Positions 25,292 through 62,784 of a DNA stretch of 64,000 nt are shown one piece after another. The stretch is from Lingula anatina. Its lineage: Eukaryota; Animalia; Brachiopoda. The notes below the pieces were generated by a model. The model was not told the origin of the DNA. It did not search any database and worked only from the letters and a program-made list of their open reading frames with translations. Each line of letters opens with the position of its first letter. Position 1 is the first letter of the stretch. A program made the translations under genes and the position numbers. The stretch spans positions 23,312,001 to 23,376,000 of the forward strand of contig CM120646.1 of NCBI GenBank assembly GCA_051362555.1. Direction: 5' to 3'.

Positions 25292-25372
<81 letters not shown>

Positions 25373-30336: not shown

Positions 30337-30537
30337 TCAGTGGGTGACACTTCCAATGTCCATTGTGTATATTTTTATACCTGATATTTCTTTATAAGTT
30401 TTAATCAAAATTGAGAGCATTTCGGTACACAAAAGAAAAATGTATGGGGAGAGTGGGTCACCCTGGCGACAACCCTTCGAAATTTTAAAATAATCGGATA
30501 AATGAGCAATTCTGACTGACTGAGGCATTACAATCAA
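30337..30537 (-). mobile_element. L1/Tx1 RT relic (duplicate of 8562-8762)
   Basis: GCRQGDPLSPYIF motif. Confidence 0.8.
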
Positions 30538-30890
30538 AATTTAATATTTTTAACCATTTCTGCGCCTTCCCCCGTCTTTGTCAGTAAAGATCTCTGGGCC
30601 CAAATGTAAATGGCCCTCTGCACCCTTAGGTTGAACCACAGGGGACCGCAGTCCAAGGTCTCCACACTCTCAAAACTGATCGAGTGATCAAGTGCCTCAA
30701 CGTTCATGTGTTGAAACGCATCCTCAGACTAACCAGTGAGCTGCTGTATATAGGCCCGCTGATTAATTAGATTAATTGGGGAATGTGAGATGGTTTTGTG
30801 AGCTTCCGTAACTAAGGTTTTAAATGATATCTTTCAAATCTTATATCTTTCAGAATATAACTGCCGTAAGAAAACCTACACCCAACCAAG

Positions 30891-31865
30891 ATGTTCTGCA
30901 GTCTATTGATTACTGTGTTTGCTGTCATGTTGACGAGTGGCGTTGGTTCCACACTGGTTATACGGGATAAAAAGGTATCAAAATTACCTGTGCTGACTTA
31001 CCAAAGTTTTTCTTTACCTATTGAAATCTTTCTCGGATAAGGCTCGAAAAAATTCGTTCTCGTGTATGTGATATTTGTTGTTTGAAAAAAAATTCCAATT
31101 TGACTTAACGAATGTTAAAATTTTAAGGTCGGAATTTGCAGTTTAGGATCACGCTTATAACCTCTTCCGGTGAACAGTGATGCCTAAAGAGTCGACTACT
31201 TAGACATATAAACACAAAAACAAAATATTCATAACAGACGAAAAGCATGGGAACATTAACAACGTAGAAAGTTGATAGAACCTGAATCATAAGATAATTA
31301 ATGCCTCTTAAAGGTTCAAGAAGAGCCACCAAGTGATGTTTGGGCAGCCAAATGGAGACATGTCATAGAAGATCTCGACGTTAATGGAGATGGAAAAATG
31401 GATGAAGACGAATTTGTTACTGATATTGCTGCGAGGGTAGGAGCTATAACAATGTCCACTAAAAAAGAGAAAGAAACCAAAGTATATTTGAAGGGAATAT
31501 GGGACAAGTGGTGGAAAGGTCTTATGAATGACGACAATTTAGGAAGTATTTCAGCTGAAAACTTGATCTCAGCCAAGACAGAAATCCAAGCTAAAATGGT
31601 TCATAACCAATACCTGGATATGGACGTTAAATGGGCTATCACGTTCTTTGAACTGGTGGATGCAAACGGAGATGACATTCTTGTTAGTGATGAGTTTGCC
31701 AATTTTCTCAAGATTTTCCGTACTCCATTTTCTCCAGAGATTTTCTCTGAAGTAGATATCAACAGCAACGGTGCTATAAGTAGGAATGAAATGGTCATAA
31801 ACCATTTGTCTTTCATTAGTGGCAACGGTAAGTTAGGGGCGGATTTTTATGGTAAAATAGAGTGA
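30891..31865 (+). CDS. Secreted EF-hand protein EF2b (211 aa)
   Basis: Exons 30891-30974 and 31314-31865. One amino-acid difference from EF2a (NLES to NLGS). Confidence 0.92.
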
Positions 31866-34800: not shown

Positions 34801-35369
34801 TTTAATGACACACTTTATATCGTTAATAATGGATGAAAATCCTTCACTGGTTACACGAGCAATAAACTGCGAGTCACTTTTTACGCCCAGGTCCCCCATG
34901 TTAAATAGTGTAGTTTTTGCATTTTTGCATTCCTTTTGTCACCCCCTGTAGAATGAACACGAAATACGGGAAATGTTATTTTAATGTTAGTGAATTGCTA
35001 GGAGTAGTCACAGTACGCATTTACATTTGAAAAGACATCTAACACACTCTTGGTGCAGAAAAGAGAGAATAAAACAAAAATACCTAATTGCGAAAAACGT
35101 ATTGAATGGGGGTTTGCGACCACTAAATTACACATTATGCAAATAATGCATCAATGCTTTCCGAACAAAAGGCATCATTTATAGACAAAAATCCACTTTT
35201 ATACTTTTAAAAATAGAGACTTGGTTTGCAAAACCACCAATCATGTGTAGGGACAAGAACGTGACATAATTATTTTCGATAGTCATTTATTGCTCAGAAT
35301 AGTAATAGTACATATCCACCGCTGAAAAAATCGACTGAGACACTCTTGGAGCAGAAAAAGGAGAACACA

Positions 35370-35935
35370 ACATAGACAAAGCTAACGGTCCTGATGGAAT
35401 TCCGCCAAAACTATTGAAGGAATGCACCGCATCATTAACTGACTCTTGTGCGTTCTTATTTAAGTGTAGTACGTTGACTGGTTAGCTGCCTAATATTTGG
35501 AAGTTGGCGAATGTCACGCCTGTGAACAAAAAGGGTAACAAGGTAAAGGTAGAAAACTACAGGCCGGTATCCACACTTAACTGACAGAACTAATCCTACC
35601 TTATCTTAATGACACTCATCATGTTTTTTTTTTTTTTTTGTGCAAAGCGTTCAACTAGCACCCAACTAGTACAGGCATTACATTCAATAGGGAAAATTTA
35701 GATAGAGGTGAGCAGATTGATATCATTTATCTAGATTTTATCAAGGCGTTCGATGTCGTACCTCTTCTACTTTCGGTACATTAACTGCCTGGCTAGGAAG
35801 ATATCTAACCGCAAAGACAGCAAAGAGTATGCTTAAGTAGTAAAATCTCATATACTAGTGATGTAACTTCTGGAGTTCCACAGACTAATCTTGGGGCCAC
35901 TGATGTTTTAACCTTATGTCAATGACCTACTTGAG
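35370..35935 (+). mobile_element. CR1/L2-type RT relic (duplicate of 13640-14245)
   Basis: Same motifs, with a short deletion after YRPVS. Confidence 0.85.
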
Positions 35936-36572
35936 GTTGTTGCCCGGTAACAACAATTATTATTATTTGACAGTTGTTTTAATTATGCTCTTTTTAGTTC
36001 TTGTATATAATTTTGTACTCAATAAAGTCATTTAAATCTAAATACTTCCGGCATCGATTATCAACATAGGGATAAATGAAATGGTCCTTAAGACGTGAGA
36101 TACCTAGACATTTTGACACATTATTATACGTGTTATGAACGTGTTAAAAACGCCATAGCGAATCGTCCGTTTTATGACAAGTCTAAATAATTCACTTTTC
36201 AACGATCATAAAATCGTTTGTTAGATGTGACATTAGTGCCAGATAAAAATATCAATTAAAGGGATTATTTACAGAAAAAACATGGATTTCAAAAGGTAAC
36301 CCTAACAATCTGTTTGTCTGTCTGTTCGCCAGATTGCGTCCGTCTGTCTGTTTGTCTGACTGCATGCATGCACGACATTATGTTCGTGTAACCAGTTAAC
36401 TCAAGCAGCAATTGTATCTTTGTTAACGTTCAAAGTCTGATAAAACATAATTGTTTCATATTTGCAAATCTATTTCATTTGTTAAGTGAAAAGTTTTTTT
36501 TCTATGACTAGTAAAACCCATACCCATATCTGCGCTTTATGTAACCCGTTGCAAAAAATGGCAGACATGGAA

Positions 36573-37530
36573 TTACCGTATTTTCCCGTAAAAATCCGCC
36601 CCCTCTCCACTGTTGCCTATCACCCAGGCTAACTCCTTTATTATCATTTCACTTTTGCTTATAGCGCCGTCGCTGTTGGTATCTACCTCAGAGAAAAGAG
36701 CCGAGGAAAATGAGGCGCGGAATATTTTCAAAATGTTAGAATACTCTGTCTTGTTCAAATAGTCATTCTCATCTGCATCCACCATCTCAAAAAACGTAAG
36801 CGCCCATTTAACCTCCGAGACCAAGTGTTGCATATCAACCATTTTCGCTCTGGTTTTAGCCTCGGTTAAAATAAAGTCATCTGCTGAAACACTTGTCAAG
36901 TTTTTGTCATTCATGAAGCTTTTCCACCCCGTGTCCCAATCTTCTTGCAGGAAAGCTTTCATTTTCTCCTCCTTCTCGGCAGACTTCGTTATTGCTCCCA
37001 CTCTTGCCGCCGTCATATTAACGTATTCGTTTTCATCCATCTTTCCATCTCCGTTCACATCCATGCGGTTAATTATTGCTGTCCATTTCTTTGCCCACAC
37101 ATCAAGTGACGGATTGTCATCGTTAGAAAGCTAAAATGATAATAAAAAAACTTTTTGTCATGGTAACTTATTTGCTAAAATTAAATGTAGGTTTATCTAC
37201 TGGATTCACATCCCAGGAATAAACCAAAACACAATAAGATTTTCCGTTTGTGTACAAGCAAAAGTTGCATTTATATCATATTTACCCTGCCAAATGCTAT
37301 CAAGTTTTAAGACGGCTTTCATGACATTGACATTACCATATACCGGGCAACATGAACACCATTAATGTGATATATGTATGGGTACTCAAACTAGACGTCT
37401 TTTTATATCACAGTCAAATACATGTAAGGTATGTGATAAACTATACCTTTTCACCTCGTATAGCCAGAGTGGAAACTCCATCACTCATCAACGTGGCAGA
37501 AAAACATATTGTCACTAGACTGAAGAGCAT
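36573..37530 (-). CDS. Secreted EF-hand protein EF3b (213 aa)
   Basis: Exons 37530-37447 (MLFSLVTICFSATLMSDGVSTLAIRGEK) and 37130-36573, no stops. EF loops DVNGDGKMDENE, DADENDYLNKTE, DTNSDGAISKSE. Confidence 0.92.
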
Positions 37531-40301
37531 GATGAGTGGGTGTTGTTCTCCTGAAAGCGTTATCTGAAAGAGCCTGGAATAGTAATAACATTTAAAGTTA
37601 CATATGAAGTCAAAATTTGCAATTTAACCAGGCCAAACACCATCATATAATTTTAATAGCACAGCTAGAAATACTTCAGGGGTATTTACAGGCATCATTA
37701 TGGCAACGGGCGCTCTCAGAATTCCTGTGTTTTGTTGCAAAAACATAATGGTCTGAGATCGTAACAACCATCTTTGGATTCTCACAATAAGCTATGGAGC
37801 CACCCAGGATATTGAAAGTGCTCATTCCAGAGCATAATCAACCTTCTAATAATCTGTACCAACCCCGCGAAGCTCAATTGTCTACAAGAATATCCCTCTG
37901 AACAGATTTGAAATCCTTGCTGAATGTATGACTTGCGTTATCTCAACTTCCGAACATTTGCTTCCTCATTGGAATCCAAAGTGGAACATCATGGTTTAAG
38001 GGTGCTTGTGTAATGTTGGTAATTGACAGCCACGAGTGAATGAGGAGCGGGGAGTGTTTTGTAGACGAACTTATTTTATTGACATGCACTTATGATAGTC
38101 ATACAACTTCGTGTAATATAATGTAAACAGAGAGAAGGCCGATGAAGATTGCATGAGGTAAAGATAGATATGGAAAGAGAGCGGCCCGGGAACCAACTAG
38201 AAAGAAGTTAGTAAATAACATTAAAAATTATAACGGTTCTGTACTTACTACCTCACGTAACAGCAAAAGATAAACAACAGCCTCGTCACGCTTCTTCTAA
38301 ATTTTTATTATTATTAATTAATTTATTTTTTGAATGGACATTTTCGCCAGTTTTTTGCTTTTTGGGCCACATGACATGTTAAATATGGTCTATAGGATTA
38401 AAATTTAAAAAAGAAGTTTGTTAAACGGTTTCAAGCTGTTGTGTAATCATTTGTTAACAAAAACATGGAATTGAAGCTCTGAGAACTATCTTCATCACGT
38501 TAATGTTTCACTGCCCTTCTGCTGTTATATTTTACATGATGTCTTCGACCATGCAAGTACAAAATGTACCCAAATTTTGATATAGAAAAAGGAAACCTGG
38601 GAATCCATGTTATTCAATAATTCGATATTATTGTTTCGCACATCTCTTCCAGACGTTTTGTTGATAAGTGATAAATAAATAAAACAAACATCAGTGCGAT
38701 TTTTACAGGCAGCTCTACCATAATCAAACGTCTAACCTGTATGTATGGTGGGATTGAACAGACACTATTAGCAGAAGTGTGCCCTATTCCATCAAAACAA
38801 CAAATGCTTACCCGCATTGTATAAGTTAAACAGGTGTGGTAAACAAAACACCTATTTGTGGCATCGACATGGAAACTAAAGGGAAAAATAAGATTTCAAA
38901 ATATTCATTCATTCAATCATCTTTCCATCATCTTAACTAGTATGTGGGCCTTATTTATGTGGCTGAGTGTCTGGCCTAGTTTTCAATATACCCTGTACGT
39001 AGTTTAATTTACCTATACTATGTATGCATTATACCTACACTTCACCTATGTTTACCCCGGCCCATTGAGTCATTTTTAAGAAACTAGTCTTTAAAATATC
39101 CAGACGTATTTCTTTTATATAGATCAACTTTATTACAGTTTGTTTTGCAATAAAATACATTTTGCAATCATTAATGGTAATAATTAAGGTTTTCATTTGG
39201 GGTGAAATACAATGAGTAGAATTGTTTGGCCGCCAGTTTTAGCAGGGTCAGACCTGGGCACAAAATGAGTATATCATAATAAATATCAGTGTAGCATCAT
39301 GTCACACCTCCGAATCCCCTCATAAAATGACCAGCGAATCTCATCTTTTCCCTAACCAGGTCGTCTACCCATGTTTTGGTCGTTCCCATTCTTCAGTTAT
39401 GCTCATTTAAAAAGCGGTATTTTGGTACTACGTGTATGCGCACCTAACATGTGTCCTCCTATTATTCTTAAGCTGAATATGAGAATATACAATAACAATA
39501 TACGTCAATATTTCAGTATTAAAAATCACCGTACTGAGTACTTTAAAGACATACAATTATGCGATGATTCAATTGTATATCCTAGACGTCCGATTTCGAA
39601 AGTTTCAACACAGACGTATCATTTACTTACTGGTAACTGTGCTAGTAGGCCCTGTATATCAAATAAACACACAATTTATGTATATTATAGTATTGAACTA
39701 ATACATAATCTATAGACGCTAATGAAGCTAGAAAATGTTTCGGTTTACCCAAACAATGAGTCCTTGTGCGTTCTCCCTAGACCATTAATCACCGCAAGAT
39801 TATATGAAATGTTAGGCAATAATTTTAACCCTGTGAAGTTGTTACCGTCGCATGAGGGTCATTTACATAATAAAGTAGACGTTAGATTTGAGCAAAAACT
39901 GAATATAAGTCTATTTTTATACAGCATATAGTCACTGTACAAAAGTGAAAGTCTACCATATACCACACAGTGACACCGACACTATTTATTCATATTATTT
40001 CCAGGTAAATTTAAGCTATTTAGCTTATTAAAGCTGTTTGGGAGTTGGTCGTACTTTTTAAAATGATACTTACAGCAGCAGGGAAGGTAATTTTATGGTA
40101 TCAAATGAATATGAAATATCAAATATTACATATTCCACAAAATTGCTATTTGTGTTAAAATTCCACTTAGCAGCAAATTGGATTTAATGTGTTTATTGGG
40201 CTGATTTTTTAAACACATAAAGTGTAAATATCTTTCTTTTAACTCTTGATCACTTGTACACACTGGAATAGTCTGTTAATTAAGACCACGTGGTAGGCAC
40301 G

Positions 40302-41221
40302 TTATTGCAGTGTTTTCCCATAGAAATCCGCCCCCTCCATACTGTTGTCCATTATAAAGGTCAACTGCTTTACAACCATTTCACTTTTACTTAAAGCACC
40401 GTCATTGTTGGTGTCTAATTCAGAGAAAATATCCGAAGAATACGGAGTGCGAAAGATCTTGAGAAAATTGGCGTGTTCTGTTTTGTTGAGAGACTCATTC
40501 CCATCTGCATCCACCAACTCAAAGAAAGTAAGCGTCCATTTCATTTCCACGTCTAGGTTGTTCATGTCAACCATTTTCTTTCTGGTTTTGCCTTCGGTTA
40601 GGATGAAGTCGTCCGCAGAAATACTTTCTAGGTTAACATCATTCATTAAAATTTTCCACCATTTGTCCCATGCATCCTGCAAATAGGCTTTTATTTTTTC
40701 CTCTTTCTCGATGGAACTCGTTATTGCTCCTACTCTCGCTGCCGTCTCATTTACATATTCGTATTCATCCATCTTTCCATTTCTATCTACGTCCATATGG
40801 TCAATGAATGTTGCCCATTTGATTGCCCAAATATCACGTGACGCATCGATATCGTCAGATACCTATAGAGGAAACAAAGTGCCATATAGAATTTTCTTAA
40901 ATGAAGTCACTACTGATTATACTGATTACATGCCGAAAAGTGACATCATTTCAAGACGTTTCAATTGCATAAAATCATTCAAATTTTTCATCAGTCTAAA
41001 TTTCTAAATAAATTGACATTGCATGTTTTGATGTATTTTAAATTCTATGTCAAATTCTGCCACACTTGAAATCCTTATTAAATAACAAAGTAGAAAACTT
41101 AAAAGGTCATAATGTCGGTAATGCTTCATACCTTTTTTTCTCGTATAACCAGTGTGGACCTACTTTCACTGATCATTGTGGTAGCAAGACATATTGTCAA
41201 TAGATCTAAACTGAAAAACAT
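40302..41221 (-). CDS. Secreted EF-hand protein EF4b (216 aa)
   Basis: Exons 41221-41132 (MFFSLDLLTICLATTMISESRSTLVIREKK) and 40862-40302; intact. Confidence 0.92.
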
Positions 41222-42164
41222 ACTGATTGATGTGGTTCTTTAACGGCTGTAATCTTCTCGGAGCTAAAAGATAATACTTCTGGTTTAAAGACAAGACGCA
41301 TTTTCCAGTCGTAAAATAGATCAATGTCATTATTTTACTTCATGAAAACCAACGCATCATTAAAAGAATTAAGGCAATGCGCTCAGGTTTTAATGCTTCT
41401 CTGATAATAATATTAAAATGAAGACCAAATATAAGCTCCAGCGAATAAAAAAGCATACGTAAATCATACCCCCCTATATTACACCTAATCTAAAGCAGTT
41501 AAATGCCCACAATATACGTATATAACTCACCGTACGGCTCCAGCTCTTGCTTCGTATTCTTCCAACAACGGTGATCTACACAGAAATAAATGAAATTCAA
41601 TCTTTTCTTTTTTGTCATGTAAGTGTTTCTATGTCATGAGGGTACTCTTAATTACCATAATAATGAGAGTATACTCGCACAGATGTTGTTTACAGAAATT
41701 AACAAGCAGTACAACATACTGTACATATAGCCTTATGTTTTCCCGTATTGCAAGACAAGGTATTGCAATACAGGTGTTGCAAACAATAAAAACATTCCCG
41801 TTCAGGCTGAAGAAAATAGATTTAAGTTTTCATAAAGGCTTTGTGATTTCTTATCCTACTACTAACATTTGGCTGCGGTTTTTATGTCCACGTAAGGCTG
41901 TACAGGTACCAGTATTTGTTTTTGTTTCATTTCGACGTAGGTTTGGTTTACTTATCTGTACTTATTATCCGGGTCCTTTTTAAAGACATCCACACTTTAT
42001 CAATTTCTTTATGTGATTTACTTGGTTAACTTTTGTTCGTCAATGTTAGAATTAACAAGGAGTTTTAAAATAAAATTGGTATTGAAAAATATTACTTATA
42101 TATTTATAATGTTATCAACAACAATATAAGCGGCTGTTTCTTCAGTATCCTACGTTTACTAATG

Positions 42165-42216
<52 letters not shown>

Positions 42217-43177
42217 AGCGAAATTTTATCCTGTAATAAAAGTATTAGGTCAACCGCAGTGTTACCAGTGACAGAGAGTCCCCCATGATAGAGAGTCCGC
42301 TTCCCATTCATCTGCACAGTTAAGTCTCGCCCCAGATATTGACCCACTTAGTTCAGGCTTACACTTACCATTATAACTAAATTGGGGGGAGGGGGTGTGT
42401 GTGTGACACGGACCCTCAGTTTAGTTACAACGACACTTTCAAATCAACTAGAGTTGGGTATATATAATTTTTATGTCTCCTCCATCCCAGTATACGACAA
42501 ACTTTCATAGTCCCATTCATAACAAGAAGGCATCAAAGAATATAGATCGTTCGAGAATTGGCCAAACAAGGCCGCTTTTATTAAATAACCCGACTATACT
42601 ATTTTAACAAAACTCCTCATTCTAAAAAATAAATATGTTTTATATTTTAGCAGAAGTTGTCTACAAACAATTTTGCACAAATTTCGTTAGTGGGGTTACA
42701 AAGAGAAGCTTGCATAGCTCAAACGAGCCGATACATTATTTCTTGGTAACAACGATACACGTACGAGGAAGCAAAACACCACTGTCTAGGAAAAGGTGAC
42801 TTTCAATTTAAGTTACCAAAAGGAGGTTGGGCGCCCAAGCGGAGAATACGTGGAGTTCATTTTGATGGGAAACCGGACCCCCCCTTCAAATAATCCTGGA
42901 TCCATCCCTGCTTAATGTCCATCAAGTCAAGACCAAATGAAATGCCGGCGGTAATGCAGGTCCTCTGGACTGGCAAGTTTTTTTTTTGTGAAAATAAAGG
43001 GCATAAAAATACATCACATGTAAAGACAGATCGATGGAAATTAATTACTTAGTTTGGACCAGAATTGGGAGGACCAGCACATTCTCTGTAGTGAGGGTCC
43101 TAGCATTTTCAGTATTTCCAAAGTTTCCCCAATGTCTGTTTTTATTAAAAATCGTAAAATGATTTAAGCTGAGTTAA

Positions 43178-43477
43178 AGGGATAATAACTCTTCGTATGA
43201 GATCTATATTTCACAATAAAAACATTGTGAATAACTCATAGAAATATAATATATTCTGTATTACCACAAAATGGCAGTTATAGCTATTATTCTGATATTT
43301 GAGCTTGTCTTTAGACCAGCTCAGAGATTAAAAAGAAAAAACAATATTTTTTAGAAAAAAAACAGGGACTTACTTTGAATGTAAAAATGGATTCATCAAC
43401 CATTGGTAAATATGGGAAAATTGTTGTTTACTCCAGAAGAATTTATTTTTTGGCCGAAACGAAGAATTATTATCCCT
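43178..43477. mobile_element. TTAA-specific MITE (duplicate of 24289-24588)
   Basis: Same inverted termini and TTAA flanks. Confidence 0.8.
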
Positions 43478-43607
43478 TTAACTTAGAAAAATTTATTTGA
43501 TATTTGCAGTAAAACAAAATACGCATATTGTGCTCTGCTTACATCCGTTCTTTATTATTATTTAATTAGGGACATCGTCACCTGGGTAGTATTAAGGTAA
43601 CATGGCA

Positions 43608-44180
43608 TTATAAGATTTTACCGTATAAATCTACGCTTTTGAAATTGTTACCTTTCACCCAGTACAAATTATTTGAAATCATTTCAATTTTGCTTAAAGC
43701 ACCGTTGCCGTCGGTATCAATTTCAGAAAAAATATTCGAATAAAATGGAGCACGGAAAATCTTGAGAAAATTGGCAAACTCCGTCTTGTTCAGAGAGTTA
43801 TTTTCATCTGCATCTACCGCCTCAAAGAACGTGAGAATCCATTTGACTGCAATAACCATGTGATCATTATCTTCCATTTTCTTTCTTGTTTCAGTCTCGG
43901 TTGAGATAAAGTCGTCTGCTGAAATGCTTTCTAAATTTGTGTCGTTCATAAAGCTCCCCCACCACTTAACCCATATGTACTGCAAGAACGCTTTGATTTT
44001 TTTCTCCTTTTCAGTAGACTATGTTATTGCTCCTACTCTCCCTGCCGTCATATTCACAACTTCGTTTTTCTCCATCTTCCCATCACCGTTTACGTCTAAA
44101 CGTTCAATGTGTGCTCTCCATTTGACTGCCCATATGTCACGTGGCCTACCGACATCGCCAGCCACCTAAACAAAACAAAA

Positions 44181-44260
<80 letters not shown>

Positions 44261-44903
44261 TCAGCTAACTGTTCATCATATGGTTTGTGATTGGTTTACC
44301 AGATTAAATAACATATTGAACTAGACTATACACATCAAGCACCTTTTGCATTGCGTGGAGAGATATTCCACTCTAATATATTATATTTTCAAAAACGTTT
44401 GTAATAACCGTTTAGATGCATTTTTTGCATGCCATAATGCAGGGGCGGATCCAGGATTATTTGAAGGCGGGGTCCTGAACACCCATCATCTGATGCGTAG
44501 CCGACCATCGCCCACTTGGCGTGTGTTCGGGCCTGCCCCGAAAATTTTTTTTGTGTGTGTGTTTTGGAGGGCAAACGGTGATGATTTTGTACGGTTTAGA
44601 ACTATGATTCAGCTGGTTAAAATTCTGATTTCAAAAGGGAATATAGGTGTGATAAAATTTCAGATACCGAGGGGTGGGTCAGGACCCCTCCTGACCCCCC
44701 CCCCCTCTAAATTTGCCACTGTAATGTGTGCATGTACCACAAATGCACATATCAGCTTTATCAAACAAACGCAATCCCTATAAAGCCGCTGTAATTCGCT
44801 GTATATATTATTATTATGTATAACCAGTGTGGAAGCACTGTCACTCATCAGCATGACAGTCAGTCCGGTTGTCAAATGAAGAACAATAGAAAATGAAGAA
44901 CAT
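43608..44903 (-). pseudogene. EF5b pseudogene
   Basis: AAG>TAG at 44021-44019; signal-exon donor destroyed near 44805 (TATACC to TATATA on +); net 13-bp frameshifting insertion just after the ATG (44903); the segment matching 26920-28125, which carries the promoter, is missing. Confidence 0.92.
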
Positions 44904-46139
44904 TGTTGCTAGTTCCGGTCCTTTTGCGGTGATAATCTTCTCAGATCTAAAAAAAAAAACGACATAAAAACAAACATCGTTTACCAAAGTCTCGCGTGCG
45001 ACGGGTGGCAAATATTATTAGTTTTCCTAGTTATAGATGCAAAACACTGTGCAATATTCTTGTCTAGTACTTATACTTGCCAGACAGGTGGACAGAGGTA
45101 GATATACAAAGCAAAGTTAAAGAAACTGTACATAGAAGTCGGAAAGGTAAATTAATACCGAAGAATTACAAACAACACAAAGCAGAGGATATGACAAACT
45201 CATTTTACTTGACAATGTGGTTGGAATGTTAAGTGTTCTCAAACTACACAGGTATTCCAGACATTTCTGTCACTCAGTTAAATACACTGTTAATCCACGA
45301 TCATTTGAGTTTGAAGTATCAATATGGTAGTTACGCTTCTTGTCGTTGGGATATAAATTTAAAAGATTTAGGGTAATTATTGATCACAATAAGCACGCTT
45401 ATTTAATTCATCATCCACCGTTCTTATATAAATCAAAAACTTGCTTCAATAATTCTGTATTCTGTATGGTGCGTTGTAAAAGAAAAAATCGAATTGAATG
45501 CGTGATTAAAAAAAAAACATCATTGTTAAGTAAGCCACTGCAGATATAGCCGACAGAAATGTGCCTGGAGCCAGCAATGCAATATACACAACCAAAAAAT
45601 CACCCGCACTGAATAGCAAATGAAATGAAAATTAGAAATTTACACTGAATCCAAAACAAAGAAAAATGGGATTGAATGAAACATTTTTAGCTTGTCAGTA
45701 TGTCCCCGTCATATTGCTTCTATTCTGTTTAACGTACCACGCTGTGACTGCTTTAAACTACTCCATGAGGTTGCCATATATACATGTATGTGTATATCAT
45801 TTTCCGATTGGCATATTTTAGGGTAGAATACATTAAAATGATATGTGAAAAGAGTAAACATGCCCATGCAAACAAGCACAGATGTCGACTTTCATTATGC
45901 TCCTATTTGGCCAATTCAGTGTGCATCAAAATGTGTCAGTTGCGATGTGAGTTAAGATGTTGGAATTCATTTTGACATTAAACCATTGTATGTTGGCTTT
46001 AAACAGAGACTGTATATTTTCTCCCAATTTCAGTTACAGAAGGCAAAATTTACGATAGGTTTTTTTTTAATCAAGAAACTTCTTACATATGGTTTGCGAG
46101 TGGTTTACCCGTTCATATCATATATTCATCAAGGCTACA

Positions 46140-48799: not shown

Positions 48800-49403
48800 A
48801 TGCTGTTTGCCTTAGCGATTATTTCGATCTGCACGTCTGCTGCTTTGGCAGGTAAGTGGAGAGATTTTGAGTCGATTTTACGTCCATTTAAATTAATTTC
48901 ATTTTCAAATTGGTATCAAATACTGACATGTGACTCGTCGTAAATAACATATCGCAGGTTGGTGTCAGGTTCTCTTCTGATTTTACTTGTTTTTTTGGGA
49001 TGGACACATCAAAAGCAATAAGTAATGACTAGTTCCATGTTTTGACAAAATGTCGATGGCATTAAGTATGCCCTATAGGTCTAAACAATATGTAGCTTAT
49101 GTTAAACTTACGAATAACTTGTTTTTAATTTAGGATTGTACCAACAAAATATTTCATTACTGGAAAAACTTCAATTTATGTAAACTGATGGTTTTACGTT
49201 GAAGCTGCATTGCATGCAGTGGCCACTAAGATACGTGATGTACAGTTCATATAAATTGAAATTATTAAGCAGAATAGGTGCACATATGTTTACATTTGAT
49301 TGTTTTTTCATCCCCAAAGCGCATATATGCCTACACATAGCACTCCTTAACGAAATTTATCAACACATACATCTTAGAAACCTACATAGTCTGTTAAAAT
49401 TCA

Positions 49404-49469
<66 letters not shown>

Positions 49470-51130
49470 TTATATATAATGGGATTGATAACAAATTTAA
49501 GCATAAAATTACTGAAATAAGTGTGAATGTACCATGAACCGATTTCAAGTTCTAAAACATAATGCAATCACAACCGATCTCCTACTTGAAGGGGTCAATT
49601 GATACCATGTTTATTAAAATCTTCCTTGCAAATTGTCACCTGTTGATGGACTAGCATTTCTCTTTTTATTTTTATTTTTTAAATTTCACTTTTTTTCACC
49701 TAGACAGCGCGTGCCATAGTTACAAAGCTGGCTCCACCTGTCAGACCGACAGCCTGTACTGTAGCGGAAGTTACGTCAGTGGAAAGTGTTTGGGGGCTAC
49801 CAACAGGAGGTGCTGCGTGCCCGGATCTGGTATGTAATACTAAAGATACTGATAGACAGATGTTTTTAACATACGGAACGTTATTGTTACGCGCGTCTTG
49901 TCATAAATAGTTCCATTATGTTAATCTTGGAATTATCTCAATAATTTTTATTTACTTCTTCATTTATCAGTTATACCTACATAAAATCACTGTAATTATT
50001 ATCAATGTTTCTTTATTTATCAGTTAGCTGTTTATAATCACTGTAATCACTATTAATATTATTATTCGATTTGTTATGAACTTCCTAGGTGACAGTGCCT
50101 GCACCAGCCAGGGGGGCACCTGCAAGTACGACTCCAACTCGTGCAGTGGTTCTTATAAGTCCGGGCTGTGTGCCGGACCAACCGCCAGACGCTGTTGCGT
50201 TTCTTCATCTTCTTCTGGTAAATTTTAGCTACCAGTCATTTTATTCTTTAGTTGTTATGTAAAGCCTCCTTTACACTGGACGGCATCCTTTCTGCGTCCA
50301 GCAGTACGGCCCCATTTTAGAGTTAAAAAATTATAATACTTTACGTGCCGACAACTGGTCGATCACTGAACATTCATTCTGATACCAAATCAGTACTCGT
50401 GCCTCCTTATTAAGACCACAGCGATGCCAATTTTATGGTCGCAGAAAGGACGCAGAAAGGACGCTGTCCAGTGTAAAGGGGGTATAAGTAAGGAACGATT
50501 TCTGCTCTGAGAAATGTAAGAGGTGGTAAAGTAGGAATATGGGATATAACTGAGTTGTATAAAAAGACGATATGAAAAGTGCCAATTACTTCACTCACTT
50601 ATATAATCTGTTTTACATCCCCGCCATCCTGTGTATTTGGACATCACTTTTATTGCCTACTTATTGAACTTTTACTTGTTTGACTATGATGTTTTCTACA
50701 TAAACTTCAAAACTGTGCGGCACCGATGTATTCCCATTTTAAACTGAACATCTTGCCGTTGTTGACAGGAAGCGGAAGTGGCTGGGTTGACTACAGAGGA
50801 TACACTGTGTCAGATGCTGATGTCAGAAGCAAGCTTCAGAAAATTGCCAACTTGTACGGAAAAAGAGTCTGGGTGACCAGCGGCGATCGCCCAAATCAAT
50901 CCAATACTGGATCTCATGTAAGTTACAGCATTGTCATCTCACACCGACATAATGTTCAATATCAGCTGAACGGGATGTTATGAGCAAACGAGCATGCAAT
51001 GATTGATATTTGCTGCATACAGTATGATCAATTCTATTAGCTGTGATAATCATCTAATTACCTTAGTAATTTTGATTTATATTGTTGTCGTTTGCACTAA
51101 ATAACATTTGACGATTATTTTTTATCCAGT

Positions 51131-51177
<47 letters not shown>

Positions 51178-51428
51178 TCATGCTTCAGCATTATGTTAGA
51201 CGAGCTGCCGACTTCTGGATCGACGGAGAGAGTTCTGGCCAGGCCATCTGGAGCAGGCTGAAGTCAAGCGGCATTCTGGCCAGAGACTACCAGGTGATCT
51301 GGCACGGCTCCCGCACCTGTACTGGAGGAGAACACATCCACATAGGTCGCTATGGGGACAACAGGAGCACGTGCTGGGTCATAGAGGGTACCTCGTCCAG
51401 CAACTATTGCAAGTACCATTGTCAGTGA
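48800..51428 (+). CDS. Secreted protein: two beta-defensin-like Cys modules + M15-type zinc peptidase domain (231 aa), gene DM1
   Basis: Exons 48800-48851, 49704-49829, 50089-50217, 50769-50917, 51189-51428; all GT-AG, phases 1,1,1,0; 696 nt open. Signal MLFALAIISICTSAALA; modules C-x8/x6-C-x6-C-x8-C-x7-CC; Ser/Gly linker; VTSGDR, SHHYVRRAAD (H-x6-D), EHIHI (H-x-H). AATAAA at 51525-51530. Confidence 0.9.
50263..50484. mobile_element. Harbinger-like MITE in DM1 intron 3
   Basis: CCTTTACACTGGAC / GTCCAGTGTAAAGG inverted termini with TAA flanks. Confidence 0.7.
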
Positions 51429-51613
51429 TGCCCATGTACAGCGATGGCCAAGTTGTCAAAGAGGCGATGGTGCGATGCTGATGGATTTTGAATGGCCAAT
51501 ATTGTGAATTCAATGATATTGGAAAATAAAAAGAATGTAATGAAGATGATTTTATTTTCGTTCTTGCCCAATTTATTTATTTTTTGAGGTTTGCTTGGTT
51601 ATATTTTGTTTAG

Positions 51614-51656
<43 letters not shown>

Positions 51657-52980
51657 TGATTTGGTATGTTTTTCAATTTTTAAATATGATTACATATTGT
51701 TTGGTTATAAAATTGTATCTAAATATGATGGACACTGTCGCGTATTCCTGTATTTCAGAGATGATCATGACCTCCATGCCATGAAGAGAATTGTTGAAGT
51801 AGACAATCTTTATGACTAGCTTATAAAAAAATAAAATCAAAATGAAAAATAAAAACGATACGAACAGATGAGTTCGCCAACATCATTGAAGAACTGTATT
51901 CTTCTCAACTTTTTTTGAGGGGTAGGGGGTGAATTAAATATCGTACCATTTATATTATTAGCAAATTGTCATTATTGCATAAGGGTCGTGGTCATAATAT
52001 TGAATTCGAGTCACGGTCAGGGTCGGGCCACGACACTTTTTTCAACAGAAAATCCATATACACAGTGACAATTTGCAATGGTGGTTATAATATTCTAGCA
52101 GCAGTCGTAGACCTACAAACAGTACACATACAAACGGACATATCATACACAGGTGTGGGTGTGGTCTCCATCATAATAACACAATCACTCCTAACACAAC
52201 CAGAGAGCTGTTTTCACATCATATGCCCATGCACAAGGAGGCAAGAAAGGAAATGACACAGAGACAGGGTTTCATAAGACTGCTGTAACAGGACTTAACC
52301 GCTTTAAATACATTTAAGCGTCCTATGTAATATAAGGTGTAAGTCCAAGAAGTCCGTGTGGCCTCGATGAAGAGCGTATATCAGAGAGATGTACGTGACT
52401 CATGATAGGTACTAGGTATATCGAGATATTTGACAATAGACGGAGCATTAATTTCGATATATTCAAAGTAAAACTAATATAACAGGCGGATGAGGTGTCT
52501 GATTTAACTTTTAATAGTAAACCATTTTGATGACAACGAATGATAGATAAAACATGCGGTCAGTTAAAACTGGGAACAAACTGTGACAAGGTGGAATGAA
52601 AAGATGCTGGTGATGTCTTCATAATGAAAACATTTCAATTACGCCAGAATAGATTAATAACATGTTTTCCATTGTCAAGGTCAGTCAATAAATGGTTTGA
52701 TGTTTTATATAGTTGATTCCAAAAATAAGCTGAAAGTTTGGAATACCCGTTCAAGAGATCAAATACTTGCCAGCATACAAATAAAAAGCAAACAAAACAC
52801 GTTTAATAATGTAGAAGACAACAAGCATCAATGTGAAATTCGCTGCATTCTTTTTATTTCTGAATATAATCACACATATCCTTAAGTTGGTATTGAAAAA
52901 TGCCGAAAATTATACCAAAACGTTCCTTTTTGTTATTGTCATCTGACTTGACTGAGAGCTGACGTCTCTGATGTCTGGTA

Positions 52981-55953
52981 TCACTGACATCTGTACTTGC
53001 ACTTATTGCTGGACGAGGTACCCTCTATGACCCAGCACGTGCTCCTGTTATCTCCATAGCGACCTATGTGGATGTGCTGGCCTCCAGTACAGGTGCGAGT
53101 ACCGTGCCAGATCACCTGGTAGTCCCTGGCCAGGATGCCGCTTGATTTCAGCCTGTTCCAGATCGCCCGCCCAGAACTCTCTCCGTCGATCCAGAAGTCA
53201 GCAGCTCGTCTAACATAATGCTGGAGCACGAAATAATAAAATAGTGATACAGATAATAATAGCTTATATCTTTAGAATGAAATTAGTTTCAGATGTTCGT
53301 TTTGCATATTTTTTGTACAAATAATCCATCATTTACAGAGAATTCAATAAATAAGATCACTTTGTGGCAGTTATTCCATGGAAAAAGAAAATTGGAACAA
53401 AATGTTTGCCCTTTTCAGCAAAAGGAAAAAAATGTCAATTTCTCTCAATATAACTTTTAAATTAAATTGATTTTTGAGATCAAATATCTACAGTGTTCAT
53501 TTACTCGTAAAATGCCAAATGGAAGTGTTGTAGCTTACATGTGACTTGGTGTTGGATTGGTTTGGTCGGTCGCCACTGAATAAATAGACTCGCTTGCCAT
53601 ACAAGTTGGCTATTTCCTGAAGCTTGCTTCTTACATCAGCATCAGACACAGTGTAACCTCTGTAGTCAACAGTCCCTCTACCACTTCCTGTCAAACAGAC
53701 AATTATAACAATCAACAAACAGTCACTATTGCAGAAGTTAAACAACTGTTTTTTTTTTTTTTTTTTTTTTAAAGAAGCACTTTTTGTTTCTTTAGCGCAT
53801 TTTATTTGTAGGTTAATATATAAACTTATATATTTAATATATAAACTTTTACTACATACATGTACTTCTCATTTATGGATAAAAACTAGATGTGAAACGG
53901 CGTAAACAGCCAACAAACACAGTAACGGCTAATAATATTGGTATTATACTTGTATCTCTTTAAATTACGAAACAGAATTAACCATGTTTTTATTAAACAA
54001 TACATTTTAGATGTGAAAAAGAAATGGCACAATCAACCGTTACAGGTAAGAATACATTATTTCTGATTTAAAGAAAATTTATCGTCCTATATATATCACT
54101 GGGCATCGTATATTTTTGAGCATAATGGCGATTATATATCCTACAGCTGTAGATGGTTCAGTAGGTTAATTTACAGATAATCCAATAAATTACACCTATC
54201 TATTAATCAATTATTAATTTTAATGATGCATTACTTATTATGACAGCCAGATCCGTGTTCTGATTTACTGTTAATGGCAAACCAACTGTATAGGTAATTT
54301 AGAGATAATAGTCTGTTGGAAGTGGAAATACAGAATAACAAGATGGAATAACAAGATAGAATGATATTATCCTCACAATGAAAACAGGCCAACCTCCACA
54401 GAATAGAGTAAAAGCACATTAACATACCTACCCCTTTTATGAATTACCAAGGCCGAACAAGGCAAAATTTTATGTTTTGCCTATTAAAGCAATTTTCATT
54501 AATCAGCATGGTGGAGATGTTTATAGCATTAGATAAGTGCATGTTGACGTGAACGATAATAATATCTTTTACTCTGTAGGTTTGAATATGAGTAGTTTTA
54601 ATTCCACCGCACGCACATCGTGTCTGAACTCCCACATCTTAACATAGGAATAATTTACCAACATTTCCTTTCTTGATTTATTTACGACCAACGCATGGTC
54701 GGGTGTAGGTGTTGCTGCAATTTACCTGTAGATGATGAGGATGAAGGCAGACAACAGCGTCTGGCGGATGGTCCAGCACACAGCCCGGACCTATAAGAAC
54801 CACTGCATGAGTTGGAGTCGTACTTACAGGTGCCCCCCTGTCTGGTGCAGCGTCTGTCACCTGGAAAGTAAAACAAGAAGAGTGATCGAAAATAATTCAA
54901 ACAAGCAAAGCTCACTTATAATAAAAATAGGAAGAAGATATGAACTGATAAACAGATATAGATTAAAATTAAGAAACAAGTACAACAATTAGAATCAAAT
55001 ACAGATGAAAGTAGTAATACTAAAATGAAGATGTCTTCAATTCACCTTTATAGCAAAACGTAAAAAAAAGCACGTTTTGTTATTATATTTGTACAACGTA
55101 CCAGATCCGGGTAGACAACATCTCCTGTTGGCACCGCCGAAGCACTTTCCACTGACGTATCTACCACTACAGAATAGGTCATCATTCTGACATGTGGCAC
55201 CGCGTCTGTAACTATGGCATCTGCTGTCTGCGTGAGAAAGTAAGGTAAGACTGACCATTAAAGGCAGCGTCTCGGTTTCCACAATCAAACTCTCGTTGGT
55301 TGTTACCGATTACCAAAATATCCTTCTCTAAACCTTGCTTCTAACTAAATGTCACCTAATCTTTAAGAATTCTGAATGCCAGAATATAAACATTAAACCC
55401 CACGGTTGAAAAAAATATCATCTCACGAATGTTTTGCGTTTCTGATTTAGCAGGACATAATGTAGAATCTACACACTGTGACCTAACTTCAGGATGTCCT
55501 GTTGAAAGGTGACTGATATGACACATTTGGTACTTACACGACTGAATAACAAACCTGTATTAAAATGATAATATTTTTCATGCCCTGGGGTTCTATCGAA
55601 GCCCTTTGTGTTTCCTGAGCGCATTTTATTTGTAGTTTAATATTCTAAGGTTAAGAAAATTAAATCAGAAAATATCTGCACACACGTTTATAATACTTTT
55701 GAGAGAACGCAATTGATCGAAAAGTAAAACTTCTGGTTCATAAAGCTTCATCTGTTTTCTTTATTCTGACGGTAATTGCATGGATGAAACATACTCTTAC
55801 TTTATTACTAAAACTTACATGCACGACAACTTGATAACCAATAATTAATGAGTTTGAAAAAGAACTGAAATAAATATCACAGCCAAAGTCTCTTCACTAA
55901 CCTGCCAAAACAGCGGATGCGTAGAGCGAAACAATCGCCAGAACAAACAGCAT
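52981..55953 (-). CDS. Convergent paralog DM2: signal + two Cys modules + M15-type peptidase (233 aa)
   Basis: Exons 55953-55902, 55227-55102, 54860-54726, 53687-53539, 53220-52981; same phases as DM1; 702 nt open. FSGDR, SHHYVRRAAD, QHIHI. Poly(A) signal at 52858-52853. Confidence 0.9.
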
Positions 55954-57640: not shown

Positions 57641-58857
57641 TTTGTTGTTAGGAAGAGGTTTGTAGCATATCGTAAAAAAGCAATTGTAAAGAAACCAAAT
57701 ATGCGGAGATCGCAAGCGGGAGGGGTCTCCACAGCTTTGGAGATCGCTGCCTCCTACTTGTTCACACATTCTGGAATGTTTGTACTGTGAGAACTGTTAC
57801 ACTTGTCAAAGAACACGTACTGTTGCTGTACACATAAAGCGGCGCTGTACGTTTGAGAAGTAGTGTAAATTTAGGTTTCCTTCTTCAGAATCACGTCTGG
57901 AAAACACTGCACCTGTAAGTGTACGCAGTAGATATACCCAATGTATTTATTACACGGTTGCTTTAACGGCAAATATATCGAACAGTTTTTACAATGGTTC
58001 ATTCATTGATTTCGTCTGTGCATTACATTAAGGAGTTTAACGCAAATGCATAGCCACAGAAAATCAAACACCTATATAAACGGGAAGACAGAGATACGAA
58101 ACCATAAACTGAAGTGTGGAAAAGAGAAAACACATTCAAACTCCAAACGTAAGAAGGCAGCGTATCAAACCACTGCGGAAACCGATACCTACATGATACC
58201 TACACAGCTTCGAGGACGTTTGACGTCCTACACTGTACACATATGCTACCCTTAGTGTCAGGACACAGTAAAGCTAGCTTGTTAAGAGTCTGTTAACTAT
58301 TCATATCGCTTTACTGGCCCTGAGGAACAGCGACAATTTTCGGTATCCGTCAACCAAAATTTTGCCAAACACGCCCGCATTTTGACGGTAGTGGCTAGAG
58401 TCATTTTTGCTGATATGGGTTATATATAAGAAATCAAGATCAAGCTGGGAAAACTGAAATCTAGAACCTAGAGTAACATATACATGTGCGGGACGTTTTT
58501 ACGTTTAATACGTGTGTAAAACTTGATGACGTGTATTTAACTGGCAGATTCATGAAGTCAATGATATGCCCATCTTTCAAATCAAAATTACTGTTCTTGA
58601 CAATTAAAATAACACTTATAACAGACGGATCTCTGATTGAACTTATTATAATATAGAAAACCAGCCCCATCGGTTATTGATATGCCAGGTGAATGTTCAA
58701 ATCCAGAACAATAATGTGGCTAGGTAAAATTATGATATTTTTATAATGAAAACATACTGTGTTTCGATCACGGTAAGATCGCACACTCCACATACTGCTG
58801 CACATACACCGTGTCTTACCTGTCATAACTTTAAGCCAGACTATAGAGGAAGCGTTC

Positions 58858-61800
58858 TTAAGGAAGACAACAGCGTCTTGGACCGGGACCCGCACACAGC
58901 CCAGTAGAATACGAACCATTGCAAGGGGCGGTGTTGTACTTACAGGTGCCACCCTGACCGATGCATGCATTGTCACCTAGTGTAAATAATTAATTAATTA
59001 ATTAATTAATTAATTAATTAATTAACAAACAAACAACGGTGATAATAAACACTTCAACGGAGGTAAAGGAAAAATCAATATTAAAATGAACTCGATTATA
59101 ATAAGGCACATTTGCGGTACTTTCAAAATATTTAAAGGTCATTTCGTTCAGTATCTTTAATACAACATACCAGCTCCCGGAACACAACACCTCCTGTTGG
59201 CAGCCCCAAAACACAAACCACTGACGTAACTTCCGCTACAGAACAGATTGTCCAGTTGACAGGTGGCGCCAGCTTGGTTAGTTATGCATGCGATATCTGC
59301 GTGAAAAAATGGCAGATTATACCAACCGTTGATTTCAGTTTGCAAGAAATAAAGTACTTCAACTCATCTATATTTGATAAATGTCAGTATGTCATATTTA
59401 GAATTTGGTATCGGTCCAGTTTTATATTAATCTCATTTATATTAAGCTTATTTCTTGATAATTCTGATGTACGGGATGTACACCATACAGATAAATGGTG
59501 TAATTCTATAATCATGACATAATATTCAACGCAGTAACAAATATTATGAAACGCTTACAACTTCAGCAGGATATCTGGAGGCCTAAAGGCATATTTTAAC
59601 TTAAAAGATGACTGATACTGTGTAGGGAAGTTGACAAGCAAATACGATATATGTATACAGCCGTAAAAATAAAGTGTCTCCAGCAATGAGGTATTGCGTT
59701 AATATACATTTTGACAATTCCTCGCCAATCACGATATGTGTTGCAGTTCTTTTTTAAGAAATGAACTTATGTTTTAGCACTTTAGAGGAAAACGACAAAA
59801 ATATATGTAAAAACAATATGAAATAGTTTAATGAAATGAATACACGATCATAAAACAATTAATACTTAGCGTCCATTATAAATCGAATTTTGATAAATCT
59901 TCAACTAAAAAATAGTTATGAGTATAATATAAGCTACATATTGCTTTACATACATGTATTATGCGTTTGCACTTATGCCATTGAGATTGGCATCACCATT
60001 TGTCAGATCCAGCAATTAAGCACACCAGGTCGCTTTTGATCTGGTTTTTATCAATGAAGACAAGTTTTATCAGAATATAATCTGGGAGCACCCTGAAATA
60101 TGGTACTAACGACAAGTCATTTGTCAGTATCTTATACCATTTGGGAATGAAACAAAACTACGCCTACACTCATTGAGGTAAAATCGACTCAAATTCTCTC
60201 CGTTTGCCTGCTAGAGCAGCAGACACTGTAAGCTAAGAGCAAAATAATGGCTAAAACAAATAACAAACTTTACCTGGGGAAGGAGAAGGAATGCAACACC
60301 GTCTGGCAGTTGGACCAGCACACAGTCCAGACGTGTAAAAACCACTGCAAGGTTCTGTGTCGAATTTACAGGTGCCTCCCTCACTGGTGCAGGCATCGTC
60401 ACCTAGGGAGTTTGGGTACAATATCGACATTAATAATAATAAGTATAAATGTATAAACACAAAGATTGAGTTAATGGAAATACCAATGTTATTATTTACT
60501 CAGTTGTAACGATAATTGCAATGTACCGTACGATTATTTTATTTAATCATTTATTTTCATATCTTCAATAGAACACACCTGCTCCTGGAACACAGCATCT
60601 CCTGTCTGCAGCCCCAACACAATTTCCATTGAGATAACTTCCGCTACAGAACAAACTGTCAACCTGACAGGTGGACCCAGCTTGGAAATTATTACACGCA
60701 ATATCTGCATGAGAAAAAATGACAGGCTAGCCCAACAAAATAATATCAATCGACTCCTCTGTGTTTTTTCGATAGTCAGTGTGCCATATTTAGAACTGCT
60801 TTGTACACTGCAGCGTTATTCTTGATAATTCTTAATTACGCGATGCATACTAGAATTGGTCTAAATCTATGACACAATATAACATTCAACTAATGCACAT
60901 ATCAACAAAATCTCTGCAGGTCTAAAATCCTGTTGAAGATGACTGATACTGTATTAATAATTTGATAAGTAGATAAAATGCCCACCCTTAGCTAATAAGG
61001 TGTATACCATTAACGTCTAAATTTTCAGATTTTTTTTTAAATGATAATTAATGAGACACGTGCATTTTGAAAAAATAAATAAATAAATAATAACGAATTA
61101 CCTGGGTAAGGGGACGAATTGCAACAGCGTCTGGGAGTTGGACCAGCACACAGCCCTGTCGTGTAAAAACCACTGCAAGGGGCGGAGTCATACTTACAGG
61201 TGCCCTCTTGACTTATACAGGCACTGTCACCTGGGAAGTTTGAGTAGATTATGGAAATTAAAACCAAACATTTGTAAATACATCGAAATATTAAGTAACA
61301 ATAATAATAAACATGATGGTGATGATGATGATAAAAATAATTATTTTTTAAGGAAATAAACTCATGCAGGTAATGAATACACTAATATTTAAAAAACAAT
61401 GTAATTATAACACTAACTGCAATTTACCATACTTTCAAAATATTTAAAAATCGTTTACTACAGTATATTTAATATAACATACCAGCTCCTGGAACGCAAC
61501 AGTCCCTGTTGGCAGCCCCAAAACACAAACCACTGACGTAACTTCCGCTACAGAATAGATTGTCCAGTTGACAGGTGGAGCCAGCTTGGCTACTAGTGCA
61601 CGCGATATCTGCCCGAAATAATAAAATTCAGTCCAACCAATGATATCAGTTTGTAAGTATACAATGAATTGATTTATCAGCTCAGGTAAACTTGCCCGTA
61701 CCGACACTGCTGCCATATGCACTCTGCTTGCTTCCGACTCGCTAATTTAATTTCTTGCTGGCTGCGGCAGCAGTATTTGTATTTTTCAGAAACTATGTTG

Positions 61801-62400
61801 ACTCTTGACTCACTGTACTGTGTAAACTATGTTAAACCATCATGTTTGTCTGATATGGTAAGCGATCAAATTATAATGTGTTATAAATACATAGCGCCTC
61901 TTGCCCAACAGACGTTTCTGGTTCATATAACAACCAAGATAATGGTAAATTTGCTAAGAAATTACCTGGGGAAGGAGAAGGAATGCAACAGCGTCTGGCA
62001 GTTGGACCAGCACACAGTCCAGTCGTGTAAAAACCACTGCAAGGTTCTGTGTCGTACTTACAGGTGCCTCCCTCACTGGTGCAGGCATTATCACCTAGGA
62101 AGTTTGGGTACAATATTCACATTGAAACCAAATTATGTAAATATATCGAAAAATAATAATGGATTTTAAACAAATTTACACAAAGACGGAGAAAATGGAA
62201 ATGTCAATTGCACTTTACTGCATTTTCAGAATATTTAAAAAGTCATTTCCTATAGCATATTTAATATAACCTACCAGCTCCTGGAACGCAACATTTCCTG
62301 TTGGCTGCCCCAAAACACAAACCACTGACGTAACTTCCGCTACAGAACAGATTGTCCAGTTGACAGGTGGAGCCAGCTTGGCTACTAGTGCACGCAAGGT
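58858..62400 (-). CDS. 3' part of a poly-module gene: eight tandem beta-defensin-like Cys modules (A-B)x4
   Basis: Phase-1/1 exons 62400-62275, 62094-61966, 61608-61483, 61230-61102, 60704-60579, 60402-60274, 59296-59171 and last coding exon 58976-58858 (stop TAA after RRCCLP). All have GT-AG sites and six conserved Cys. 5' end not identified. Confidence 0.88.
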
Positions 62401-62784
62401 CTGTGTCTGGGTGAAAAAAAAATGACGGGTGATCATGAGTCCAACCACGGATGTCAGTTCACAAGGTGTAATATTCATCGATTCATCTGTCTATTTTCTA
62501 TTGTCGGTGTGTCATATTTAGAATTTGGTACTGGTCTAATGTTAATGGTCTGATGGTCTAATTCAGTTTTATTATTGATAGTTTTGATGCACACGTCAGA
62601 TGAACATATCCATAGAGAGAGCTTTAAATTTAAATTTATTTTTTTTGCAGTAATAAACCATGTATAAATACCTGTCTCAGATCCCTTATTGCTGAAAATC
62701 GACAAAGAAGAACCTTATTAATCATAGTCATTTCATGGGGTTGGAAAGCTCAAGGTTGGGAGGATAGAACATTTACTGGCTTAC

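Follow-up and report, generated by a model that had tools for sequence, protein, structure and literature searches.

The genome of the brachiopod Lingula anatina carries, within a 64,000-nucleotide stretch of contig CM120646.1 (assembly GCA_051362555.1; hereafter the window), two convergent five-exon paralogues, gene A (48800-51428, plus strand) and gene B (55953-52981, minus strand), which encode predicted secreted proteins with the zinc motifs of M15 peptidases (Table 1). Spliced, they yield open frames of 231 and 233 amino acids (aa), 83.5% identical, across eight introns that are all GT-AG with phases 1, 1, 1 and 0; coordinates, introns and frames agree with those of an earlier note on this DNA, which had reported two intact secreted proteins after splicing by hand. 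Both proteins run from a predicted signal peptide through two six-Cys modules, each a single phase 1-1 exon, and a Ser/Gly linker to a 125-aa domain, and the last intron, in phase 0, separates the two His codons of an S-H-H motif directly 5' of the first predicted zinc ligand. The signal segment of gene A has a mean hydropathy of 2.3 (residues 2-17) with no membrane span further on, and the mature proteins are basic (isoelectric points 8.9 and 9.5). In gene B an in-frame ATG lies 15 bases upstream of the exon 1 start, where its RefSeq match begins.

Table 1 Exons of genes A and B and the neighbouring module array, in window positions
Feature	Position	Strand	Content
Gene A exon 1	48800..48851	+	Predicted signal peptide, residues 1-17 (hydropathy)
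Gene A exon 2	49704..49829	+	Six-Cys module A, phase 1-1
Gene A exon 3	50089..50217	+	Six-Cys module B and Ser linker, phase 1-1; predicted beta-defensin fold
Gene A exon 4	50769..50917	+	M15 domain, first part; R143 at 50888-50890; ends S-H
Gene A exon 5	51189..51428	+	H153 (51189-51191), D160 (51210-51212), H191, H201, H203 (51339-51341), stop
Gene A exon 5 Cys	within 51189..51428	+	Cys 196/214/226/230
Gene B exon 1	55902..55953	-	Predicted signal peptide
Gene B exon 2	55102..55227	-	Six-Cys module A
Gene B exon 3	54726..54860	-	Six-Cys module B and linker
Gene B exon 4	53539..53687	-	M15 domain, first part; SGDR at 53577-53566
Gene B exon 5	52981..53220	-	H155, D162, H193, H203, H205, Cys 198/216/228/232, stop
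Eight six-Cys module exons (A,B x4)	58857..62406	-	First seven phase-symmetric, last ends in stop; intact splice sites

The suggestion that annotation misses these genes holds for the domain but not for the genes, which have RefSeq counterparts in L. anatina (gene A 94.3% to XP_013401682, 'lysozyme 1'; gene B 96.6% to XP_013401680, 'lysozyme 1-like'). Peptidase_M15_3 (PF08291), the best Pfam match, scores 21.5 and 18.9 bits in these two proteins and 21.8 in a third Lingula RefSeq protein, below the gathering cut-off of 23.2, and single exons give no Pfam match better than E 0.077. We reject the lysozyme label: no lysozyme glycoside hydrolase domain is matched in Pfam or PDB in either protein, and signal, modules, linker and M15 domain fill the whole length. 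Bivalve i-type lysozymes carry similar N-terminal extensions, and the name was probably derived from the Cys modules.

Transcription was followed in four raw poly(A)/stranded RNA runs, of which 3-16% each was read. In three of the four (X4, X5 and X7; none in X1) reads span all four introns of gene B, at 18 to about 1,000 reads per junction and run, and in two stranded runs read orientation agrees with a minus-strand transcript; RNA thus confirms the proposed splicing for gene B but not for gene A. Reads on exon 5 of gene A were rejected as evidence of its expression, as they carry many mismatches and join the end of gene B, and so were reads over its intron 3 (50267-50489), which fall on a short interspersed repeat (50260-50490). 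In each of the four runs that repeat attracts reads of transcripts from other places. The ratio dN/dS between the genes is 0.17 over the full length and 0.11 for the C-terminal domain, and both are under purifying selection. Bacterial contamination or a decaying insert, which high identity to bacterial proteins might suggest, is refuted by the GT-AG introns, the spliced reads, the dN/dS of 0.11-0.17, the animal-type neighbouring genes and the orthologues, which in two other phyla lie on contigs of 35-58 Mb; we give it practically no credence.

The C-terminal domain contains SGDR, S-H-H-Y-V-R-R-A-A-D and H-I-H-I where the earlier note had placed them, along with four Cys that are predicted to form disulfides. 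M15/LAS enzymes are defined by H-x6-D and H-x-H zinc motifs (PMC6027127); these correspond to H153/D160 and H201/H203 in gene A and H155/D162 and H203/H205 in gene B. The M15A signature SxHxxGxAxD, which the note had invoked, is preserved in its His/Asp spacing, but its Gly is Arg in both genes. Because only 50 of 133 bacterial-type rows, a class assigned mostly by architecture and absence of Cys rather than by organism name, have this Gly, it is not diagnostic in the subfamily. Across 157 domains the site is nearly invariant (first zinc His 155, Asp 157, each His of H-x-H 155, Arg 155), and an additional His, H191 in gene A, is kept in 154. Against a profile made from the 133 non-eukaryote-type relatives, genes A and B score 128 and 127 bits and 200 shuffles of gene A at most 7, so that, with dN/dS of 0.17 and 0.11, the resemblance is not due to chance. 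By sequence score the domain is an M15A-like relative and not a formal member of Pfam M15_3, with which an Acidobacteriota relative scores 32.5 bits. The RefSeq match of gene A alone finds no PDB sequence; the family profile aligns with 1LBU over the Arg and H-x6-D segment (E 0.18, top of two matches), placing R143, H153 and D160 of gene A opposite R138, H154 and D161.

The AlphaFold model of RefSeq protein P0001, 94% identical to gene A, has a pLDDT of 93-98 over the domain. Its best Foldseek match is 1LBU (E 3.4e-3), which also heads a comparison with 48,161 chains (Z 8.4, rmsd 3.2, 105 residues, 16% identity), followed by Hedgehog (Z 7.0-7.5), VldE and the T5 and Ply500 endolysins; the top seven are all LAS proteins. 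As modelled, the domain has the LAS alpha/beta fold with an intact zinc site, and profile, model, structure matches and conservation of the site residues in 155-157 of 157 domains together uphold the original assignment to this fold. Structure cannot separate 1LBU from Hedgehog, because the scores are 8.4 and 7.5; sequence does. Hedgehog chains share 16-18% identity with the domain, HH_signal has no match at E<=1 in any of six proteins (P0001-P0006), which gives no sequence link to Hedgehog, and none is shown at E<=0.001 among 127 relatives (for three of these among the best five families only). By these sequence comparisons it is not a Hedge domain. Reuse in the manner of Hedgehog, with the zinc fold kept for binding or signalling or turned on a host substrate, is accordingly a reading to which we assign a low probability: Hedgehog N domains do tie with 1LBU by structure, and Lingula has PAN-fused and stand-alone paralogues, but set against this are 49% identity to an Acidobacteriota LysM/PG-binding protein, the HH_signal result, and an SH3_3 partner retained in Owenia and other eukaryote-type proteins.

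In gene A, H153, D160 and H203 are predicted to bind zinc, with H201 as general base and R143 in substrate binding; in 1LBU, the S. albus G enzyme, R138 is the substrate Arg and H195 the base (PMC13461873). The predicted target is the peptide stems or cross-links of bacterial peptidoglycan; H-x-H enzymes of the LAS fold include both a carboxypeptidase and an L-Ala-D-Glu endopeptidase (PMC13461873; PMC11667670), so that either type of bond may be the one cut. An active enzyme need not be lytic: a D,D-carboxypeptidase or stem trimmer might digest food-derived wall fragments or damp muropeptide signals, like catalytic PGRPs. Such a role would suit the closest structure, 1LBU, a muramoyl-pentapeptide carboxypeptidase whose H-x-H base the genes share, the lytic M15A endolysins having W/F-x-H (PMC13461873), and the same Cys pair heads PGRP-SC2-like amidases. 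VldE, however, has H-x-H and is an L-Ala-D-Glu endopeptidase (PMC11667670), one family member matches MepK weakly (E 0.0055), and fusions to lysozyme, SLT and Hydrolase_2 domains occur in bacterial members; we regard a non-lytic role as unlikely, if somewhat less so than Hedgehog-style reuse.

A profile search of 1.84 billion representatives returned 201 proteins at E<=0.001, and domain architecture was scanned in 127 of the relatives, 106 of which match Peptidase_M15_3 at E<=0.001. Outside the eukaryote-type rows, 22 of the 127 combine the domain with PG_binding_1, LysM, SH3_3 or a second wall enzyme (lysozyme, SLT, Hydrolase_2, YkuD_2, GH46 or C39), and one bacterial-type member, P0064, has an SH3_3-M15 layout. 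Named bacterial members come from Acidobacteriota, other metagenome-assembled genomes and Chondromyces, and the 49% identity of the Lingula domain is to an Acidobacteriota protein with LysM and PG-binding domains. The nearest non-eukaryotic relatives thus carry peptidoglycan-binding partners, as the proposed bacterial affinity implied. 'Endolysin-like', the note's other term, describes the design but not a phage pedigree: none of 26 pattern matches in viral contigs is close, and tblastn of 50,697 phage records gave no match at E 0.01. On the phage side there are a weak match to PHROG 894 endolysins (E 0.004) and feature-level Atlas look-alikes.

Named animals among the 201 representative matches are only a brachiopod, an annelid and a chiton: Lingula, Owenia fusiformis (two genes) and Liolophura sinensis. 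Further carriers are eukaryote-type proteins, one of them a EukProt record. The commonest eukaryotic partner domain is the bacterial-type SH3_3 (Owenia, P0011, P0154 and P0166), and the chiton N-terminus aligns with that of Owenia. One locus, L010, holds a spliced signal-SH3-like-M15 gene in which a phase-1 intron precedes the M15 domain and, as in Lingula, a phase-0 intron lies just before the first zinc His; three open reading frames and one truncated Lingula model break off at this same position, the intron there being deduced from the protein only. Protein databases, the sole source for these counts, hold at least four further clusters of Lingula paralogues, with PAN or no accessory domain. 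The RefSeq proteins P0043, P0058, P0072, P0080 and P0156-P0160 have the zinc domain with its site intact, preceded by one PAN domain, by two or by none, and the PAN-type group clusters with eukaryote-type proteins, not with genes A and B. A full-text literature search, judged by titles and abstract starts, found no animal M15 peptidoglycan peptidase (supplements of genome papers may name such genes), nor is one mentioned in PMC12419801 or PMC13121700 as judged by term look-up; M15C/M15D transcripts are listed in a rumen ciliate (PMC6925433).

Trees were built from 157 domains that each span 70% or more of the profile (a quick tree) and from 50 hand-picked rows, 13 eukaryote-type and 37 others; all are unrooted and include no Hedge sequences, three long rows were dropped from the Cys-free tree and a later tree, and the long Owenia row P0090 lies outside the small trees. 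All 13 eukaryote-type rows have the first domain Cys and none of the 37 others does; the four extra Cys singled out in the note are eukaryote-specific. Eukaryote-type rows occupy one side of a branch with support of 96/95 and 99/97 in two trees, and eukaryote-type proteins, the EukProt record among them, fall together with the Lingula PAN paralogues (98/94 to 99/94). By sequence, the enzyme domain likely came from bacteria through an old gene transfer, which is the simplest reading, with one or two events and entry via a microbial eukaryote possible. The horizontal acquisition first envisaged would, on this reading, be old and reach beyond this lineage, to Owenia, Liolophura and other eukaryotes. 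A different origin (an older eukaryotic gene, transfer through a microbial eukaryote, or two transfers, each with many later losses) would change the history only, and we see a lesser but appreciable chance of it: the grouping of the EukProt record with the PAN paralogues and the weakness of a single eukaryotic clade without the Cys columns, with roots not inferred, leave room for it, against which stand the three named animals beside about 130 diverse bacterial-type rows and the many losses that vertical descent requires. Transfer of wall enzymes has precedents (PMC6006793; Dae2 preprint, bioRxiv 10.1101/2020.04.10.036376).

The six-Cys module finds no counterpart in Pfam, among PDB sequences or in the Atlas, nor is it related to the N-terminus of Owenia; in Lingula the defensin-like pair was seemingly swapped in later. 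In seven of nine matches the same pair stands at the front of Amidase_2 PGRPs (Mya, Ptychodera, Littorina and Branchiostoma), whose modules are 48-70% identical to those of Lingula. A model of module B (pLDDT 91) has 16 structure matches at Z>=2, nearly all defensins or defensin-like (Z 2.1-3.8), and the modules are predicted to adopt a beta-defensin fold of one helix and three strands, which is in keeping with their description as defensin-like, albeit at low Z. The top match is a segment of Cypridina luciferase (PDB 24NK/24NE, residues 32-72; Z 4.1, 26% identity), which hints at a broader use of the module among secreted proteins of invertebrates. Because the pair fills the slot of SH3_3, LysM or PG_binding_1 and stands in front of two wall enzymes that are not related to each other, a surface-targeting role suggests itself, and by this analogy the defensin-shaped modules likely hold the enzyme on the bacterial surface. 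They could instead be a weapon, released as an antimicrobial peptide, or a brake, acting as an inhibitory pro-part: the fold matches include beta-defensins, the double defensin AvBD11 and the two-domain tick carboxypeptidase inhibitor, the gene B modules have 15 K/R against 5 D/E, and an eight-module array without an enzyme exon adjoins. Yet the slot that the pair occupies in relatives, its place before a different wall enzyme (Amidase_2) in other phyla and the lack of an evident dibasic cleavage site in the Ser/Gly linker make this, in our estimation, very unlikely.

We conclude, with reasonable but not strong confidence, that genes A and B probably encode a secreted zinc peptidase that acts on peptidoglycan, arose in bacteria and was given new targeting modules in Lingula through exon shuffling. 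On this proposal, drawn from sequence and models, eukaryotes would have received an SH3-M15 gene, which then acquired an intron directly ahead of the first zinc His; in Lingula, phase 1-1 exon cassettes would have taken the place of its SH3 domain, the defensin-like pair here and PAN in other paralogues. The products would lyse or weaken bacteria encountered during feeding or infection. Phage enzymes of the M15A/M15_3 type lyse bacteria that have been permeabilised (PMC13461873; PMC5025407).

Several observations weigh against this conclusion. The match to 1LBU is 16% identical with Hedgehog within 1 Z unit, domain and module models have no Foldseek match at E<=0.001, and Hedgehog itself keeps the same motif while its catalysis is disputed (PMC6027127). 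No activity is on record for any family member in the literature covered; the 22 rows with a wall-binding domain or a second wall enzyme leave 105 of the 127 scanned outside that set, the majority of the 133 'bacterial' rows were typed without an organism name, and the PAN-fused or accessory-free Lingula paralogues do not point to peptidoglycan. Support for a single eukaryotic clade falls from 96/95 to 63/72 without the Cys columns, in unrooted trees. The module fold matches reach only Z 2.1-4.1, and the case for wall binding by the modules is one of association. Gene A, finally, has no junction reads in the four sampled runs, its exons 1, 2 and 4 being almost bare. A more specific version may be entertained, tentatively and as less probable than not by some distance: a single ancient transfer brought in an SH3-M15A wall peptidase that brachiopods, annelids, chitons and some microbial eukaryotes have retained, and in Lingula it became an exon-shuffled animal endolysin that a cationic beta-defensin-fold cassette, shared with PGRP amidases, delivers to the wall, perhaps across the outer membrane.

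Upstream of gene B, at a distance of 3-6.5 kb and in the same orientation, lies the eight-module array; all copies keep their six Cys, including that at 61608-61483, no M15 exon follows, and the sequence likely encodes an enzyme-free multi-defensin-fold protein. Elsewhere in the window, at least nine EF-hand genes, most of them with a single exon and coding for about 185 aa, are arrayed in tandem on both strands at positions 1191-44018; one resembles sarcoplasmic calcium-binding protein (E 1.5e-7) and coelenterazine-binding protein (E 1e-5). About 20 kb of the window occurs twice, at 95-99% identity (7743-20968 against 29518-42948, and 24079-26921 against 42967-45823), the second copy lying about 21.8 kb downstream, or 18.9 kb in its last part, as a recent tandem duplication or an unmerged haplotype. 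Positions 21816-22994 (minus strand) hold a 392-codon open frame resembling, as judged by eye, the C-terminal part of a LINE-type retrotransposon ORF2, in a part absent from the second duplication copy.

Among characterized proteins, 1LBU (MEROPS M15A, the S. albus G Zn D-Ala-D-Ala carboxypeptidase) shares the LAS fold of the model, the Arg followed by H-x6-D, and H-x-H. Besides their low identity, Arg for the motif Gly and sub-threshold Pfam score, genes A and B differ in H191 and a C-terminal strand segment typical of their subfamily, four Cys, introns, a signal peptide and a defensin-like pair where 1LBU has PG_binding_1. The bacterial subfamily (LysM, PG_binding_1 or SH3_3 with M15_3) is 45-52% identical over the domain with the same site and extra His, but has no Cys, no introns and, in the literature covered, no function on record. 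PGRP-SC2-like amidases of Mya, Ptychodera, Littorina and Branchiostoma have the same tandem module and the same signal-module-module-linker-enzyme layout with an unrelated catalytic domain, Amidase_2. The beta-defensin-fold peptides (hBD, AvBD11, tick carboxypeptidase inhibitor) resemble the modules in their predicted helix and three strands and in six Cys ending in CC, whereas the Lingula modules have no Pfam or PDB sequence match and are fused to an enzyme. The Hedgehog N-terminal (Hedge) domain shares fold and zinc motif, but with 16-18% identity, no HH_signal match and no Hint domain in genes A and B, these appear to represent a separate entry of the Hedgehog fold into animals.

The known kind to which these genes would belong is that of domesticated wall hydrolases such as Dae2 of ticks, likewise a bacterial wall-degrading enzyme retained and secreted by an animal (bioRxiv 10.1101/2020.04.10.036376). 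Dae derives from type VI amidase effectors and has been shown to be active, whereas genes A and B, known from sequence, combine a zinc M15 domain with accessory modules; we did not find this M15A class and layout described in animals in the literature covered. If the enzymes are active, the zinc M15A class would join the short list of bacterial wall enzymes taken up by animals, represented by genes in three phyla that are currently labelled 'lysozyme 1' or 'uncharacterized', and an unlisted six-Cys defensin-fold module would be a common front end of different wall enzymes, M15 and Amidase_2. They would also offer an intact animal peptidase of the Hedgehog fold for comparison with Hedgehog, whose catalytic role is debated, and, if the single-transfer version is true, a second, enzymatically intact arrival of that fold in animals.

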